Made by a program: the position numbers and the translations under genes | The notes under the pieces: generated by a model | Told to the model about the DNA's origin: nothing | Database searches by the model: none | What the model saw: the letters and a program-made list of their open reading frames with translations, nothing else | In this document: one piece after another, positions 58,428 through 64,000 of the stretch | Layout: each line of letters begins with the position of its first letter | How positions within the stretch are numbered: the stretch's first letter is position 1 | IMG/VR virus record: IMGVR_UViG_3300029305_002828 | Span: 1 to 64,000 of that record | Source: a virus | Lineage: Duplodnaviria > Caudoviricetes | Direction: 5' to 3' (one strand) | Length of the DNA stretch: 64,000 bases

Positions 58428-58564
58428 ATGAACACATCCTTTCTAAAATATAAGCATTACAATACTCGTATGCTAAGTTATAATATATAATCGAGTAATA
58501 TAAGTGTGAACGAGATTAATAATGAATAAATAACAAAATCTATGAAGAAGGAGGTATATACTCT

Positions 58565-60646
58565 ATGGCTGATTCAAGTCGAGTAAATGGTTCTATTCGT
58601 AGAGATCTATATGTATTTGAAGATGAGAATAATCCTAGGACTAGTCAAGCTGAAAATGTATTACCTAGTACTATCCTAGATCAAGTATATGATGATCTAT
58701 CTCCTACGAAGAAAAATCTTAGAACTATTCTAGAAGAGCTTCGTCAGGAAATCATTACTGGTGGTAGAGGAAATATTAAGTTTCCAGTTACTTCAGTAAA
58801 TGGTATGATGGACGATGTTATTCTGAATAAGAAAAACATTGGTCTTGATAAAGTTGACAATACGAGTGATATTGATAAACCTTTGTCTAATCCTCAAAGA
58901 CAAGCTGTAATGGAAATTCTTAAAGGATATGATTTTAAGGTAAACTTGGATGAGTTATATACTCATTTAATGAATACAGATAATCCTCATGATGTTACTT
59001 TAGAGCAGATCAACAAAGATGATGTTCTTGCTACCTTTGTTAGACATTATATTGGGTTGCATAATACATCTCAGAGTTCAACTGTACATGCTGATATCCG
59101 TGGTAGTTTAAGACGGTTATGGGTATTAGTAGATGGAATCAATGGTAATGTTGAAGAGAAGATTGAAACTGTATTAGAGTCTCTCGATAACCATTTGAAT
59201 GATGAAAATGCTCATCTTGCTTTATTTGAAAAGAAAGAAAATATTGAGAATAAAGTAGTTGAGTTTAATTCTACTACTAATGTAGACCACACTAAATATC
59301 CTACTACGAGAGCAGTTGTTGAATTTGTTGCTAAAAAGCTTGTTGAATTCGAAGAGACTTTACCTGATATTGAACATTGGATTGATGATATCAAGGTAGT
59401 AGAAAAACGCAGTAGTCTTCCCAGGGCATCTATAACTACTTTCCATAAAGCCTATTTCATTAGGTATGGAGAAACTTCTCATCCTGAGATTGCTATTTGT
59501 AGAATGAATCCTGATGGTAAGACATTCGATTGGGATATCACTCCTTTTAGTACTTTTAGTAAGTATAATCAAAATCACTTTGAAGATACTACTGAAGGTT
59601 TCTCTATTAAGATGGGAAGTATAGTAGATTCAATCTTAGGTGATAATGGTGCTTTAAATTTGTCTCTGTCAAATATCTTAAAAGGATATTATACTAAGAC
59701 TGAGATTGATGATCTTAAATACATTAATCACATTAAGATTCTTCCTGGAACTACTGATGGTACGATTCGCTTCTATACAAATAATGATATCATGACAATG
59801 TCTGAGGACATTGCTGTTGCAGGATTAAAACGTCTTGCATATCTTGAATGGGTTACAGAGAATGAAATTTGGGATAATGCTATTCATGAGCGTCACATTG
59901 TTCATAAAGCAGTCGCTACTAAACATATTCAGGATAGAGCAGTTAAACCCTTGAATATTGAATGTCCTTATGGATTCATTATTGGTAATGACCATGATAC
60001 TGAAAATCCAACTGCGAATCATATCACTCTTGAACAGCTGGCAACTTATTTACGTCCATTGATTGGTGGATGGCCTGATCCTAATGTACCTGGTGGAAAC
60101 CCCTGGTATGATAGGTTATCAATCCAATTAATGCAAACCCAGAACTGGTTGATTGGTGTTGAATATTCTTTTGGTAATGGTGGATATGGTATTCGCTTTA
60201 CAGGTAATATTAGCTGTATTGAGAATATGCGTCATAAGCTATTACTTACTCAGAATATCACAACAACTACTGGTTTTATTCTTCTGGATGCCGGTGGTGC
60301 ATGGATGTATCAATCCGATCCTGATGAAGAATGGACTGTACTTGGTGGTTCTAATATCACTGGTCATACATTTGGTACTGTTACTTTAGATAAGAATGGT
60401 TTGTATTTAGAAACCATTTCTACTGGTAACCGTATCAATGCTCCATTTGATGTATGGATTAAATATACAAAGACTAAGGATATCAATAAGTATCCTGTTA
60501 TTCAACCTCCATATGAGGAAGAGGATCTTGAGGATGGTCCATATCCTAACTATTATAATATGACTGTCCAACAGGTCGATGAATCTGAAGTTGGAGTATT
60601 GGATAATGTGAAAGTTGAACGACTAGCAGTCAATGAAAATACGTAA
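58565..60646 (+). CDS. Tail fibre-like virion protein
   Basis: VTSVNG..DVILNKKNIGLDKVDNTSDIDKPLS, HLMNTDNPHDVT, KYPTTRAV, AVATKHIQDRAV fibre motifs. Confidence 0.75.
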   Translation: MADSSRVNGSIRRDLYVFEDENNPRTSQAENVLPSTILDQVYDDLSPTKKNLRTILEELRQEIITGGRGNIKFPVTSVNGMMDDVILNKKNIGLDKVDNTSDIDKPLSNPQRQAVMEILKGYDFKVNLDELYTHLMNTDNPHDVTLEQINKDDVLATFVRHYIGLHNTSQSSTVHADIRGSLRRLWVLVDGINGNVEEKIETVLESLDNHLNDENAHLALFEKKENIENKVVEFNSTTNVDHTKYPTTRAVVEFVAKKLVEFEETLPDIEHWIDDIKVVEKRSSLPRASITTFHKAYFIRYGETSHPEIAICRMNPDGKTFDWDITPFSTFSKYNQNHFEDTTEGFSIKMGSIVDSILGDNGALNLSLSNILKGYYTKTEIDDLKYINHIKILPGTTDGTIRFYTNNDIMTMSEDIAVAGLKRLAYLEWVTENEIWDNAIHERHIVHKAVATKHIQDRAVKPLNIECPYGFIIGNDHDTENPTANHITLEQLATYLRPLIGGWPDPNVPGGNPWYDRLSIQLMQTQNWLIGVEYSFGNGGYGIRFTGNISCIENMRHKLLLTQNITTTTGFILLDAGGAWMYQSDPDEEWTVLGGSNITGHTFGTVTLDKNGLYLETISTGNRINAPFDVWIKYTKTKDINKYPVIQPPYEEEDLEDGPYPNYYNMTVQQVDESEVGVLDNVKVERLAVNENT

Positions 60647-60746
60647 GTAAATGATAAAGTGGTGGGTATTACACCCACCACTTTATTTTCTTATTATTTA
60701 CATTCCATTTAATTAAGTTAAAATATATCAAAGAGGTGAATGTAAA

Positions 60747-62561
60747 ATGAATGCATTTAAACTAGAAAAAGATATTATACTGTACAAGGTGCAGTTTGAT
60801 AAATATTGTCTAAATCTTTTTCATGAATATAGACTAGATAGATTGTCTCTAGATGTAGATGGATTATTATTTAGGATCAAATATATGGTTAAAAATAATA
60901 AAGATCTTGATAAGATTCCAGAGTTACAAGATCAGTTTATTGAAAAGGCTAGACAACTTCACAATTCTTTCGGTGAATTCCTATATCTTTTAATCGCTCA
61001 AGTTATTGGTATTCCGGATCCGTTTAAACTTGATGACTTAGAAGATATATTAGCACAAGATGTAAAGATCGATACTACCTATGTGAAGTTTAAGATGGTA
61101 GTAGTATCAAGTAATAAAGAATTCCTTGAGTATATTGATAATAGTATTCCTGAGGATGAAGTCTATAATATTGATAAAACCGAATATTTTAGATTTAATA
61201 CTGATTCTTATAATGATGGAGTATCTAAAGCATATCCAGAATTATTTGAAGATCGTCATCAGGATGTTGTCGGTAAAGGTGCAGATGGAGATGTCTTCGT
61301 TCATAACTTCACATTTCAAACATCAGAAAGATGTTCCCTTAACTGCACTTACTGTTATCAGTTTAATAAAACTCCAATGAGAATGCCATTTGAAACAGCT
61401 AAAACTTTCATTGATAATCTTTTAGCAGATAAATATGGATATATTAACAGATATAATTCTCCTGCCATTATCATTGAATTTATTGGTGGAGAACCTTTAA
61501 TGGAGATTAAACTTACTAGGAAGATTTATGAATATTTCCTTGAGAGATGTTATGAGTTAGATCATCCTTGGTTTACACTTCATAGAGTATCCATCTGCTC
61601 TAATGGTATGCAATATTTCAATCCAGATGTCCAAGCATTCTTTAATGATTATGCTCAGAATGTCTCCTTTAATATTTCAATTGATGGTAATAAAGAGTTG
61701 CATGATGCTTGTAGAATTCAGCCTAACGGTGAAGGTAGTTATGATATAGACATGGCTGCTCTTAATCATTATAACAAACATTTTACTCCAGAGCGTAATT
61801 CTAAGATGACTCTTGCTCCATCTAATATGAAATACCTATTTGATTCTGTAGTAGATTTCATTAATAATGGAATGACATGTATCAATATTAACTGTATCTT
61901 TGAAGAGGGATGGAATCAAGAAACTGCTTTAATTGAATATCAACAATTAAAGAAGTTAACAGACTATATCTTAGATAACAATCTTGAGCATCTCTATATT
62001 GCTATCTTTAATGAGATACAGGAAGATATGTTTTCTAAGTATAATGATTCTGCTCCATGTGGTGGTCAAGGATCGATGCTTGCATTAAGACCTAATGGCC
62101 AGTTCTATCCTTGTATTCGTTATATGCCTACATCAGTTGGTGATAATGTAAAGGATCTTTGTATTGGCCATATTGATACAGGTATTGTTGGGCGTGAGCA
62201 AGATTCTGAAATTCTTCAGATGATGGACAGAATTACTCGTAGAAGTTACAGTAATGATATTTGTTATGAATGTCCATTGAGTAATGATTGTGCAAACTGT
62301 ATTGCACTTGGCCATACTGTATTTGGTACACCTAATAAAAGACCTACATTTATTTGTATACAGATGATTGCAGAAGCATTAGCTAATGTATATTACTGGA
62401 ATAGATTATTGCTTAAACATCCTGAATATGATCTTCCTATACGAAAGAATGTAGTTCCTGATGAGTGGTCTTTATTGGTAATTGATAAAGATGAACTTGA
62501 TTCTCTTAAACTATTAGAGTGTGCTGCAATCGCTTCTAAGATAGAGTTAGGAGGTAAATAA
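60747..62561 (+). CDS. Radical SAM/SPASM maturase resembling the CXXX-repeat-target family, with an N-terminal extension of about 180 aa
   Basis: TFQTSERCSLNCTYCYQ, EFIGGEPL, ISIDG; SPASM CGG...YPCIRY...CYECPLSNDCANC...FIC; C-terminal LANVYYWN. Confidence 0.85.
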   Translation: MNAFKLEKDIILYKVQFDKYCLNLFHEYRLDRLSLDVDGLLFRIKYMVKNNKDLDKIPELQDQFIEKARQLHNSFGEFLYLLIAQVIGIPDPFKLDDLEDILAQDVKIDTTYVKFKMVVVSSNKEFLEYIDNSIPEDEVYNIDKTEYFRFNTDSYNDGVSKAYPELFEDRHQDVVGKGADGDVFVHNFTFQTSERCSLNCTYCYQFNKTPMRMPFETAKTFIDNLLADKYGYINRYNSPAIIIEFIGGEPLMEIKLTRKIYEYFLERCYELDHPWFTLHRVSICSNGMQYFNPDVQAFFNDYAQNVSFNISIDGNKELHDACRIQPNGEGSYDIDMAALNHYNKHFTPERNSKMTLAPSNMKYLFDSVVDFINNGMTCININCIFEEGWNQETALIEYQQLKKLTDYILDNNLEHLYIAIFNEIQEDMFSKYNDSAPCGGQGSMLALRPNGQFYPCIRYMPTSVGDNVKDLCIGHIDTGIVGREQDSEILQMMDRITRRSYSNDICYECPLSNDCANCIALGHTVFGTPNKRPTFICIQMIAEALANVYYWNRLLLKHPEYDLPIRKNVVPDEWSLLVIDKDELDSLKLLECAAIASKIELGGK

Positions 62562-63521
62562 ATGAATTCGGTATCAATTAAACCAAACAGTCTCTCTATA
62601 GGATACAATGTTACAGGTCAAGATTTTTTTGATACAATTTCTGGATTCTCTGATTTTGTTCATTCATATTTTTTCTCACTAACTGAGGATGTTCATGGTA
62701 ATAAGTTTGATTCCGATAAAACATTCAAGACTCTATGTGAATGTGAGAAGTATGGAATGAAAGGAAATCTATTACTTAACCGATTTGATTCTTCTGGTTT
62801 ATATTGGCATCTGGTTCAAAAAGCAAGAGAAATCGACGGATTATCCGGTGTCACAGTTATTCATCCAAAGATTGCTGAATGTATTAAACAGGATTTTCCA
62901 GAATTAGAAGTTCATATTTCTGTTCGATATTGGGATTGGTTGGGTGATAGAGATGGAACAATCCGCACAAATCCATTCGACAAGATTAAACTTCTAGCTG
63001 AGTCTGGAGTAGATGTTGTAAATATATCTGGCGAACTTCATTTCAATAATAATGATGTAATTGAATATATCCATGAAGTTGGAATGAAAGCAAAAATCAT
63101 TATTAATGAAGGATGTATTATTGGTAGGGAATATAACTATAATAAATTTCCGGAGTTTGAAGAATTTGATTGTAAGGGTGATAAAGGTGGTAAGGATGGT
63201 AAATGTGGACGACATTGTATAGATTTATTTGAAAAGTATCCTTGGATGAAATTATCTAGAATAGGATTATTTAAGGAAGATCTATTATATCATAATTATG
63301 ATATTTTTAAAATTGCTTCCAGAATGATTTCGAATAAAGATCTATATGACATTTTAGTTAAATTCGTTCTAAGCCCTAGAACTATAAATCTCTTTGGAGT
63401 TCCTATAACTGATGATAATTATCAAGCATTTATGAATTGGATTGCTGACAGATCTAATTGTCCAATTGACTGCTATAATTGTAGGAAATGTGAATACCAC
63501 TATAATCAAATAACAAAATGA
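62562..63521 (+). CDS. Peptidase U32-family (Fe-S) protein
   Basis: VTVIHPKIAECIKQDFPELEVHISV, IINEGC, FKIASR, C-terminal CPIDCYNCRKC. Confidence 0.7.
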   Translation: MNSVSIKPNSLSIGYNVTGQDFFDTISGFSDFVHSYFFSLTEDVHGNKFDSDKTFKTLCECEKYGMKGNLLLNRFDSSGLYWHLVQKAREIDGLSGVTVIHPKIAECIKQDFPELEVHISVRYWDWLGDRDGTIRTNPFDKIKLLAESGVDVVNISGELHFNNNDVIEYIHEVGMKAKIIINEGCIIGREYNYNKFPEFEEFDCKGDKGGKDGKCGRHCIDLFEKYPWMKLSRIGLFKEDLLYHNYDIFKIASRMISNKDLYDILVKFVLSPRTINLFGVPITDDNYQAFMNWIADRSNCPIDCYNCRKCEYHYNQITK

Positions 63522-63523
63522 TT

Positions 63524-63557
63524 GATTAGGATAGGGATTCTAAATCCCTATCCTAAT
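63524..63557. terminator. Intrinsic terminator
   Basis: ATTAGGATAGGGATT/AATCCCTATCCTAAT. Confidence 0.7.
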
Positions 63558-63618
63558 TTACTTAACTGGAACGACTTATTAAGTCATGATTGAAATAAGT
63601 AACATGGAGGTGATTTAA

Positions 63619-64000
63619 TTGAATAGAGATTTATATTCTAATATAGAATTTACTGATCTCAAAGAAAGATTAAATCAAGAGATATTACGTAGAGGAACTT
63701 ATCGATGGTGGGATCCTCTTACTACTCCATCAGTTGGTGAAGACCAAAGTCCACCATTAACTATACCTGCTTCTGGAGGGCAGATTATAGTTGATGATAA
63801 AACTTATACTGTCAATAATCCTTCTGAAGGATCTCTTGAAAGAACTAGGAATGTTCATTATCCAGCCCAAGGAGAAAACCCTGCTGGACAAAACCCTGAT
63901 CGAAAATCTACTGTACCTAATACATCTGCAGCTCAATTAAATGTAGATGAACTTCGAAACCTATTGATTGGTCTAGCTAAGATACAAGATATCAACCTAT
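63619..64000 (+). CDS. 5' part of a probable virion protein, candidate rSAM substrate (runs off the window)
   Basis: TTG start after GGAGGTG; MNRDLYSNIEFTDLKERLNQEILRRGTYRWW... open to the window end. Confidence 0.65.
   Translation, partial: MNRDLYSNIEFTDLKERLNQEILRRGTYRWWDPLTTPSVGEDQSPPLTIPASGGQIIVDDKTYTVNNPSEGSLERTRNVHYPAQGENPAGQNPDRKSTVPNTSAAQLNVDELRNLLIGLAKIQDINL

Follow-up and report, generated by a model that had tools for sequence, protein, structure and literature searches.

Why would a phage carry, among its tail genes, a radical SAM/SPASM enzyme followed directly by a gene resembling the U32 family of Fe-S proteins, and on what would such enzymes act? The question arises at the end of the window that we analyzed, positions 1 to 64,000 of IMG/VR record IMGVR_UViG_3300029305_002828, which is a contig of 95,277 bp estimated to be 32% complete. 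Its relatives have genomes of 289–292 kb, which bears out the jumbo-phage setting proposed in an initial annotation of the window. That annotation also described intact genes between a tail-fibre-like gene and a new ORF at position 63619, and the ORF coordinates agree: on the plus strand the segment holds 58565–60646 (693 aa), 60747–62561 (604 aa), 62562–63521 (319 aa) and an ORF running from 63619 onward. We confirm what was observed there; the interpretation, in which both Fe-S enzymes mature a Cys-rich region of a virion protein, is partly supported.

As judged from profile matches, the 604-aa protein (60747..62561) is a divergent, phage-borne relative of the radical SAM/SPASM maturases of the CXXX-repeat-target type. 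TIGR04115 is its best family (E 4.5e-98, 329 bits, model positions 3–359 of 359), at a score 21 bits short of the curated cutoff of 350 bits, and both NCBI and JGI name members of this clade “radical SAM peptide maturase, CXXX-repeat target family.” PapB is the runner-up at 141 bits, TIGR04463 reaches 41 bits, and among solved structures CteB comes closest (5WGG, E 6e-14). A grouping with the sulfatase maturases was rejected (53 bits vs. 329 for TIGR04115). The CX3CX2C cluster motif (C196/C200/C203; 61332..61355) and the seven Cys of the SPASM region (C438, C456, C506, C509, C515, C518 and C537; 62058..62357) are invariant in 51 homologues, and Pfam SPASM matches the homologue at locus L009, so that the enzyme is intact with a full SPASM Cys set, as first described. 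In relatives, mini-inteins split the CX3CX2C motif. Because the TIGR04115 match begins at aa 187, the enzyme has an extra N-terminal domain of 186 aa (60747..61304), close to the 180 aa or so originally estimated. This domain, which has no Pfam or NCBIfam match, is confined to this jumbo-phage group, and all 146 homologues share the same architecture. Of the comparisons suggested at the outset, that of this domain with RRE domains showed no similarity to the RRE of CteB, and that of the enzyme with TIGR04115/TIGR04119 gave TIGR04115 as the closest family. The system here has no TIGR04119 companion gene.

What, then, is the substrate? The initial annotation favored a Cys-rich region of a virion protein, probably the one encoded from 63619, over a short bacteriocin precursor, and suggested looking for (Cxxx)n repeats beyond position 64000. 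The predicted repeats are indeed present, and they lie in a large protein. The gene, of which the first 127 codons lie in the window (63619..64000, plus strand, TTG start after GGAGGTGA), continues to contig base 66291 and encodes 890 aa, comprising a Cys-free N-terminal domain (aa 1–302), a 407-residue Cys ladder (aa 303–709) and a C-terminal domain (aa 710–890) that is variable or absent among homologues. The ladder contains 88 Cys at period four, with 68 of the 87 Cys-Cys gaps exactly C-x3-C, compared to 9.1 ± 2.9 in 10,000 shuffles. Its Cys are strongly conserved: among eight homologues 84 of 89 Cys are invariant while non-Cys ladder residues are merely 52–69% identical, about 85 Cys columns are invariant across 98 homologues, and the ladder DNA contains no tandem repeat. 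The F-x-x-L-K…E-I-x-R-R start, which had been said to recall phage proteins with CxxxC repeats, is indeed common to the Cys-ladder proteins of another phage group. Inteins occur at the ladder start in relatives.

The enzyme and the ladder protein travel together. Both genes are present in all three complete relatives of about 290 kb, whether adjacent or not, and they are adjacent in seven related loci. In two of the complete genomes (G001 and G002) the genes are unlinked, and in G001 the ladder gene and the small ORF that follows it remain beside fibre genes while the enzyme gene has moved away. The pairing recurs in an unrelated group of gut phages of 110–144 kb, in which a ladder ORF lies 5′ of the enzyme gene in 32 of 33 loci (the 33rd has no upstream DNA) and, at locus L021, the pair sits between tape-measure and fibre genes. 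It recurs again in Salmonella phage SPN3US, where two ladder ORFs adjoin two radical SAM genes, and tail genes lie alongside each time. We take this as strong indication that the 604-aa enzyme acts on the 890-aa ladder protein.

We found no description of a phage version of such an enzyme/Cys-ladder system in the literature. The closest counterpart is the CXXX-repeat system, whose canonical bacterial-type set comprises TIGR04117/04114, TIGR04115 and TIGR04119, and which is a computational prediction for which we found no biochemical study. There, as here, Cys recurs every four residues in a target whose gene neighbors that of the enzyme, and the TIGR04114 cutoff is exceeded by a short ladder protein from phage MT835573 (21.3 vs. 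20). However, the phage enzyme departs from it in its sub-cutoff score, its N-terminal domain and its lack of a TIGR04119 partner; the canonical target that we read is 174 aa with a twin-arginine signal, whereas the phage target is 890 aa with three domains, an internal ladder and no signal peptide, and it is phage-encoded beside tail genes. The maturases PapB (freyrasin) and CteB (SCIFF), which make ranthipeptides, share with the phage enzyme the design of CX3CX2C plus two auxiliary clusters, although it scores far under their family cutoffs. These two enzymes act on peptides of about 45–50 aa, which have an RRE-bound leader and a core of the Cys-X3-Asp/Glu or six-Cys kind. The ladder spacers, by comparison, contain much Ser, Thr, Gly and Asn but just 7–11% Asp+Glu, so the Cys-X3-Asp/Glu scheme by which PapB and QhpD choose their acceptors does not apply. 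CrpC of Methanococcus voltae (TIGR04463) provides a precedent of another kind, in that this radical SAM/SPASM enzyme installs ranthionine thioethers on a Cys-rich protein, CrpA, and not on a short peptide; CrpA has repetitive Cys motifs and a conserved N-terminal part needed for engagement (PMC13692751, 2026). It differs in belonging to another enzyme family, in its 17-residue repeats with C-X-X-Q/D motifs in place of a period-4 ladder, and in being a cellular, non-viral system tied to iron/sulfur physiology (PMC13692751).

As a whole, we consider it reasonably probable that the two genes encode an enzyme-substrate pair yielding a thioether-stapled ladder, likely in a tail or fibre protein. 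In the reducing cytoplasm of the host, the radical SAM enzyme would cleave SAM, abstract hydrogen from ladder residues and link Cys sulfurs to neighboring carbons. Thioethers like those formed by CteB, PapB, QhpD and CrpC are the most probable outcome. A stretch rich in Cys, Ser, Thr and Gly that could not otherwise fold, and that AlphaFold2 leaves unfolded, would thereby be stapled covalently into a rod resistant to reduction. Most likely the finished protein is structural and associated with the tail or a fibre, its distal domain being exchangeable; the conserved 92-aa ORF overlapping the ladder stop codon (contig coordinates 66291–66569) is a possible assembly helper for it.

Could the ladder instead be mainly a metal-binding or disulfide module (metallothionein-like, or an Fe-S/Zn scaffold), with the enzyme modifying few or none of its Cys, or some other target? 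We consider this improbable. To our knowledge, no metal-site pattern keeps a strict C-x3-C period across 400 residues. The composition of the ladder (22% Cys, small polar spacers, no conserved acidic acceptor) would suit such a module, as would the AlphaFold2 model, in which both flanking domains fold (pLDDT 70–90) but the ladder does not (pLDDT about 30), as expected of a structure that depends on a cofactor. Similarly, the twin-arginine-type signal of the canonical bacterial-type target is typical of cofactor-bearing exported proteins, and metal binding is predicted for many archaeal Cys-rich proteins encoded close to radical SAM genes (PMC13692751, section 8). Against this, a dedicated enzyme accompanies the ladder in all of the complete genomes and across three unrelated phage groups, the nearest characterized relatives of this enzyme all make Cys-derived thioethers, and disulfides would presumably not last in the anoxic gut habitat.

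Is the modified protein part of the virion? It probably is. Its position argues for this: the neighbors here include virion proteins, a lytic transglycosylase, the fibre-like gene and a 1294-aa fibre gene, and a place beside fibre genes is kept in the three phage groups. Its N-terminal part is conserved and its C-terminal part variable, as is typically seen in fibre and receptor-binding proteins, and a small coupled ORF follows it, as we believe is often the case after fibre genes. The opposing explanation is a non-structural, intracellular or lysis-released factor, such as a redox or sulfide buffer, an anti-defence protein or a bacteriocin-like agent. It draws on the domains of the 890-aa protein matching no known virion fold (best Z 4.7), on the protein matching no virion protein by sequence, on bacterial CXXX systems not being phage-structural, and on a mixed neighborhood in which a sigma-like factor and an exonuclease are also near, which counts against a tail protein. 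Among phages whose particle proteome is published, none has a homologue, except for the unannotated SPN3US ORFs. The protein lacks a signal peptide, however, and no protease or transporter gene lies near, and we regard a non-structural role as unlikely.

The 319-aa gene (62562..63521, plus strand) had been called a U32-family gene with a Cys-rich tail. The tail is present, and the modeled protein is a TIM barrel whose top Foldseek match is a U32 protein (5D88, E 5.7e-7) and whose ESM Atlas neighbors are U32/TrhP clusters (TM 0.63–0.74), but 5D88 is tied with other TIM barrels (VIA-align Z 15.0 vs. 14.5) and the match to Pfam PF01136 is below cutoff (E 0.014, 15.1 bits vs. 22.4). Four invariant Cys (C185, C204, C215 and C219), after a barrel strand ending N-E-G-C, recall the four-Cys [4Fe-4S] sites of U32 proteins (UbiU/UbiV, TrhP and RlhA, with 5D88 being the structure of Mk0906), although their spacing, C-x18-C-x10-C-x3-C, differs from CX6CX15CX3/4C and CXnCX12CX3C (PMC6747719), and the U32 C-terminal domain is missing. 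The protein is probably a distant U32-like Fe-S protein, the likeness to U32 systems being limited to this one gene.

Does it act on the ladder as a second enzyme, adding an O2-independent hydroxylation (+16 Da) after the radical SAM step? Its start codon comes immediately after the stop codon of the radical SAM gene, a terminator-like hairpin of 15 pairs (63525..63557; palindromic stem, scored on the minus strand) marks the end of a common transcription unit, and the arrangement is the same in the closest complete relative, G003. In other phages its relatives always lie in clusters of small radical SAM genes, which makes some functional link to radical SAM chemistry plausible, but no ladder is near. 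A joint role is nevertheless unlikely, because most relatives lack the gene; because only this contig and G003 have it between enzyme and ladder, its slot being empty or filled by unrelated ORFs in L003, L004, L006/11/13 and L010; because G002 lacks it while keeping enzyme and ladder; because in G001 it lies about 40 kb from both, beside a HemN-like gene and two small radical SAM genes, a pair whose distribution (G001 and G003, not G002) it follows; and because no U32-sized Cys-rich gene was seen in the cassettes of L021 and SPN3US, the two other ladder-bearing loci that we read. Although co-transcribed with the radical SAM gene here, it probably stands outside the ladder system, most likely as a passenger belonging to another radical SAM pathway.

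Lastly, the 693-aa gene (58565..60646) serves as context only. Its tail-fibre-like label has a basis in PHROG tail-fibre/minor-tail matches, but these are short (aa 75–116 only, best E 6e-9). Its N-terminal 500 aa are kept 5′ of the radical SAM gene in L004, L006 and L010 (tblastn), while its C-terminal part is not conserved among relatives, and a terminator-like hairpin of 15 pairs with a T run (60653..60687) closes it. The AC-N7/8-TAA motif reported before 58565, 60747 and 63619 is present 47–55 nt 5′ of all three starts, but carries little information: 8% of random 100-nt windows contain it and, between −75 and −30, so do 16 of 105 ORFs. The ladder gene has the AC-N7-TAA form 48 nt 5′ of its start (63571..63582), and the AC-N8-TAA form 47 nt 5′ of the radical SAM start (60700..60712) is a possible late-promoter element.

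The ORF that opens at 63619 on the plus strand had been predicted in the initial annotation to bear Cys repeats, and the sequence beyond 64000 confirms that it does: the ORF leaves the window, ends at contig position 66291 and encodes an 890-aa protein with 89 Cys, 88 of which lie inside residues 303-709, a segment we call the ladder. Sixty-eight of the 87 gaps between the ladder Cys are exactly four residues (C-x3-C), against 9.1 +/- 2.9 such steps, and at most 21, in 10,000 shuffles of the segment, and Cys makes up 10% of the protein relative to a median of 0.8% among the ORFs of the contig. Comparison of eight homologues (47-71% identity) shows 84 of the 89 Cys to be invariant, with only 52-69% identity at the non-Cys residues of the ladder; when the set is widened to 98 homologues, Cys is invariant in about 85 columns, and the spacers consist mainly of Ser, Thr, Gly and Asn, with Asp plus Glu accounting for 7-11% at each spacer position. 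The ladder is not a recent tandem expansion at the DNA level, as TRF detected just one array of 12 nt x 3.3.

The ladder is flanked by an N-domain (aa 1-302) that has no Cys and is well conserved, and by a C-domain (aa 710-890) that is variable (32-67% identity) or missing among homologues. Searched with a profile of the N-domain, 1.84 billion proteins yielded only 24 representative clusters, and the full-length matches that we examined carried ladders of 42 to 105 Cys. The 890-aa protein had no match, TIGR04114 included, when scanned against NCBIfam at E values up to 10, its sole tblastn match was a low-complexity stretch of mycobacteriophage Tweety, and the ESM Atlas held no usable match; the database's precomputed annotation places PF27846.1 on the protein and all its homologues. 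AlphaFold2, run with the 98-sequence alignment, modeled the flanking domains with fair confidence and the ladder with a pLDDT of about 30. Searches with this model returned no usable fold match in BFVD or in the PDB by Foldseek or by VIA-align wide (best Z 4.7, for the C-domain; Foldseek E above 0.03) which, given the length of the model and the low confidence of its ladder, does not indicate a new fold. A resemblance between the N-termini of the ladder protein and the neighboring fibre-like protein was not significant (E 0.15). Some homologues are interrupted: P0013 and other ladder proteins of 1220-1350 aa contain inteins with LAGLIDADG homing endonucleases at about residue 306, in the first rungs, and in two related loci (L003:3272-3646 and L010) extra beta-rich modules of 60-125 aa lie in frame within the N- or C-domain. 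The latter gave no Hint or intein match and so resemble inserted domains more than inteins.

Upstream of the ladder gene is a radical SAM gene (60747-62561, +), whose 604-aa product matched the NCBIfam model TIGR04115 ("radical SAM peptide maturase, CXXX-repeat target family") at an E value of 4.5e-98 over model positions 3-359 of 359, with a score of 329 bits, slightly short of the 350 bits set as the curated cutoff. PapB (141 bits), QhpD-type (88), SCIFF maturase (78) and anaerobic sulfatase maturase (53) followed at much lower scores. Its affinity is thus to TIGR04115 and not to the sulfatase maturases, as had been proposed, even if the match stays under the cutoff. By comparison, in MT837480 (L022) we found a canonical set comprising a 174-aa Cys-repeat target with a twin-arginine signal, a TIGR04115 enzyme scoring 630 bits and a TIGR04119 protein; however, no phage genes are visible in this 6.8-kb record, filed as "Bacteriophage sp.", and it may therefore be bacterial DNA. 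The CX3CX2C motif (C196, C200, C203) and seven SPASM Cys of the 604-aa enzyme are all invariant across 51 homologues, and the nearest solved structure is that of CteB, a thioether-forming SCIFF maturase (E 6e-14), in an alignment that starts past the peptide-recognition domain (RRE) of CteB. Residues 1-186 had no Pfam or NCBIfam match; this N-domain is confined to the jumbo-phage group, where 146 homologues have the identical architecture, some of them already named as "CXXX-repeat target family" maturases by NCBI or JGI. A test of whether it is a fused copy of a 202-aa "helper" ORF found in a group of gut phages with genomes of 110-144 kb detected no relation (BLASTP E 0.079; hhalign probability 0.55%).

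Most of the radical SAM homologues have an in-frame mini-intein within the CX3CX2C motif, at one of two different sites: before C200 in L005:8001-10277 and L007:8001-10238, and before C203 in L009:8001-10319. These elements begin with Cys and end with His-Asn, after which a Cys follows, and homologues of about 950 aa additionally have LAGLIDADG domains. The copy in the window has no intein.

How constant is the association of enzyme and ladder? The contig, a single phage sequence of 95,277 bp, opens with the 64 kb of the window; CheckV estimates it to be 32% complete, and the related phages, one with direct terminal repeats, measure 289-292 kb. Megablast of the region against 50,697 phage records gave no match. 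Here the ladder ORF, a nearby candidate Cys-X-X-X repeat target, starts 1,058 nt 3' of the radical SAM stop codon. The two genes adjoin in seven related loci of the jumbo-phage group (L003, L004, L005, L006, L010, L011 and L013), and no ladder was found within 8 kb downstream of the enzyme in four others (L007, L008, L009 and L012). Two of these four belong to the complete genomes G001 and G002, both of which encode a ladder elsewhere, so that both genes are present in all three complete genomes. Complex prediction for the full-length radical SAM protein and residues 1-70 of the ladder protein gave a score of 0.00, which counts neither for nor against binding.

The pairing recurs in other phages. 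In MT835573 (L021), a human-faecal phage record of the 110-144-kb group, an enzyme 36% identical to that of the window adjoins a 193-aa protein with 22 Cys, and the pair sits between the tape-measure gene and tail-fibre genes. This short ladder protein scores above the TIGR04114 repeat cutoff (21.3 vs 20) and shares with the 890-aa protein the start motif (D/E)-F-T-x-L-K-x-x-I-N-x-E-I-x-R-R. Within the 110-144-kb group a ladder ORF is 5' of the enzyme in 32 of 33 loci, the remaining locus having no upstream DNA. Many ladder genes of this group (L026:4538-5119, also L028-L039 and L047-L048) contain a TAG, in frame, at a position that encodes Trp in the remaining copies; the stop codon could be recoded, or the copies could share a nonsense mutation. 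In Salmonella phage SPN3US, a 130-aa ladder ORF with 21 Cys (L069:2094-2486) and a 134-aa one with 20 Cys (L069:2497-2901; both in NC_027402 around 143.4-144.2 kb) lie upstream of two radical SAM genes. RefSeq annotates neither, the first being in an unannotated gap and the second overlain by a CDS, ACQ60_gp100, called in another frame. The SPN3US cassette is just 3' of a 5,184-nt gene that, matched by size, would be gp168, a 188-kDa "baseplate/tail fiber candidate" detected in particles (PMC5694885).

We found no paper on the biochemistry of TIGR04115 or on a phage version of the CXXX system, and the present system is a phage variant of a predicted bacterial one. Its candidate substrate, at 890 aa with an internal ladder, agrees with the earlier expectation of something other than a short bacteriocin precursor, and it likewise differs from the short precursor with a cleavable leader of RiPPs; in the ORF listings of 10 related loci the pair had neither a protease nor a transporter ORF beside it. 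What, then, would the enzyme do to the ladder? Radical SAM/SPASM maturases have been studied for the small peptide natural products that they make, and it was only in 2026 that a whole protein was shown to be cross-linked enzymatically through thioethers, formed from Cys by a SPASM enzyme on a Cys-rich protein (PMC13692751). By analogy with this precedent and with its own closest relatives, which form Cys thioethers, the enzyme would most likely staple the ladder through many thioether links. The chemistry of the PapB-type ranthipeptide system is a poor guide to where such links would go, as the enzyme reaches 141 bits against a cutoff of 340 for that family (NF047865) and, with Asp plus Glu so scarce in the ladder spacers, the Cys-X3-Asp/Glu acceptor logic of PapB-type substrates is inapplicable. 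An array of invariant Cys might also be mainly a metal-binding or disulfide-bonded module that owes little to the neighboring maturase, which we consider unlikely. The source sample is animal faeces and homologues were binned with Ruminococcus and Lachnospiraceae assemblies, making an anoxic host plausible, and under such conditions disulfides would plausibly be unable to hold.

Gene context suggests that the ladder protein may be a part of the virion. Its neighborhood includes two proteins classed by PHROG as "virion structural", a lytic transglycosylase, the gene for the 693-aa fibre-like protein (58565-60646, +) and a 1294-aa tail-fibre gene, and in G001, where the enzyme has moved away, the ladder gene is still beside homologues of these fibre genes. 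The same neighborhood also has a protein with sigma region 4 and an alpha-CTD and an exonuclease, and the ladder protein had no PHROG structural match, as might be expected if the modified protein were a non-structural phage product; given the persistence of the fibre genes beside it, we find that reading improbable. A 92-aa ORF (contig 66291-66569; L001:8291-8569), whose ATG overlaps the TAA stop of the ladder gene, precedes a strong terminator-like hairpin (contig 66573-66601). In G001, G002, L004 and L005 this ORF still accompanies the ladder gene, including where the radical SAM gene has a separate location; it appears to resemble the small assembly genes often found 3' of fibre genes and may be an assembly helper.

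If thioether stapling and a place in the particle are taken together, a bolder proposal follows, which we regard as possible though doubtful: that one enzyme would use dozens of thioether bridges, as many as about 88 in each chain, to staple the ladder into a rod, a new covalently cross-linked fold that would serve as a non-reducible disulfide substitute in the tail/fibre apparatus of phages from anoxic, reducing habitats and would be the largest known RiPP-type substrate. Several unrelated phage groups keep, near tail genes, this enzyme class together with proteins in which as many as about 100 Cys at even spacing are strictly conserved. Were the ladder cross-linked and in particles, it would represent an unknown means of stabilizing virion parts in reducing environments, and the uncharacterized TIGR04115 family would gain a concrete and very large substrate. 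As a cultured carrier, SPN3US allows direct testing.

The initial annotation had also made the U32-like gene (62562-63521, +) a component of the ladder system, and comparison across relatives did not bear this out. It starts immediately after the stop codon of the radical SAM gene, and a hairpin is found 3' of it, so that the two genes form one transcription unit here. The 319-aa product is probably a U32 family member: it matched PF01136 over aa 94-121 only, at 15.1 bits (E 0.014), below the gathering score of 22.4, and its model is a TIM barrel (pLDDT 72) whose top Foldseek match is the U32 protein 5D88 (E 5.7e-7, TM 0.58 by target), although VIA-align ties 5D88 with methylenetetrahydrofolate reductases and other barrels (Z 14.5 vs 15.0). 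Its structural neighbors in the ESM Atlas are U32/TrhP clusters, with PF01136 on 28% of its own cluster, and its family has four invariant Cys in a spacing close to, yet unequal to, published U32 Fe-S motifs (PMC6747719). Neither tblastn against the 50,697 phage records nor a search of PDB sequences with the family profile gave any match. The TIGR04119 companion ("CXXX repeat peptide maturase") is not this neighbor, NCBIfam having returned noise only and hhalign a probability of 0.1% against the TIGR04119 protein of L022.

Only in the window and in the complete genome G003 is the U32-like gene between enzyme and ladder; in L003, L004, L006 and L010 that slot is empty or filled by unrelated ORFs, and the gene is elsewhere in G001 and absent from G002. 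In other large phages its relatives are embedded in clusters that group as many as five small radical SAM genes of high divergence (L058:2060-10382, from IMGVR_UViG_3300045988_181898, and L061:5000-9000, from G001, the latter additionally with a HemN-like gene), with no ladder protein near them. G003 also has the two small radical SAM genes that neighbor it in G001, whereas G002 lacks them, exactly the pattern of the U32-like gene itself. Every line of comparative evidence agrees, though from only three complete genomes, that the U32-like gene would most likely be a passenger here, part of another radical SAM module, and a reading from adjacency alone proved misleading.

Two observations concern transcription at this locus. 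The motif AC-N7/8-TAA is found at window positions 58510-58522, 60700-60712 and 63571-63582, 47-55 nt 5' of the starts of the fibre-like, radical SAM and ladder genes, and it also precedes several neighboring structural genes; of 105 ORFs, 16 have it between -75 and -30, it occurs in 8% of random 100-nt windows, and it may be a late-promoter element. Farther downstream, a 250-aa protein (contig 66666-67418; L001:8666-9418) has sigma-70 region 4 (aa 39-81) fused to the C-terminal domain of the RNA polymerase alpha subunit (aa 99-153), an uncommon combination in a phage transcription factor.
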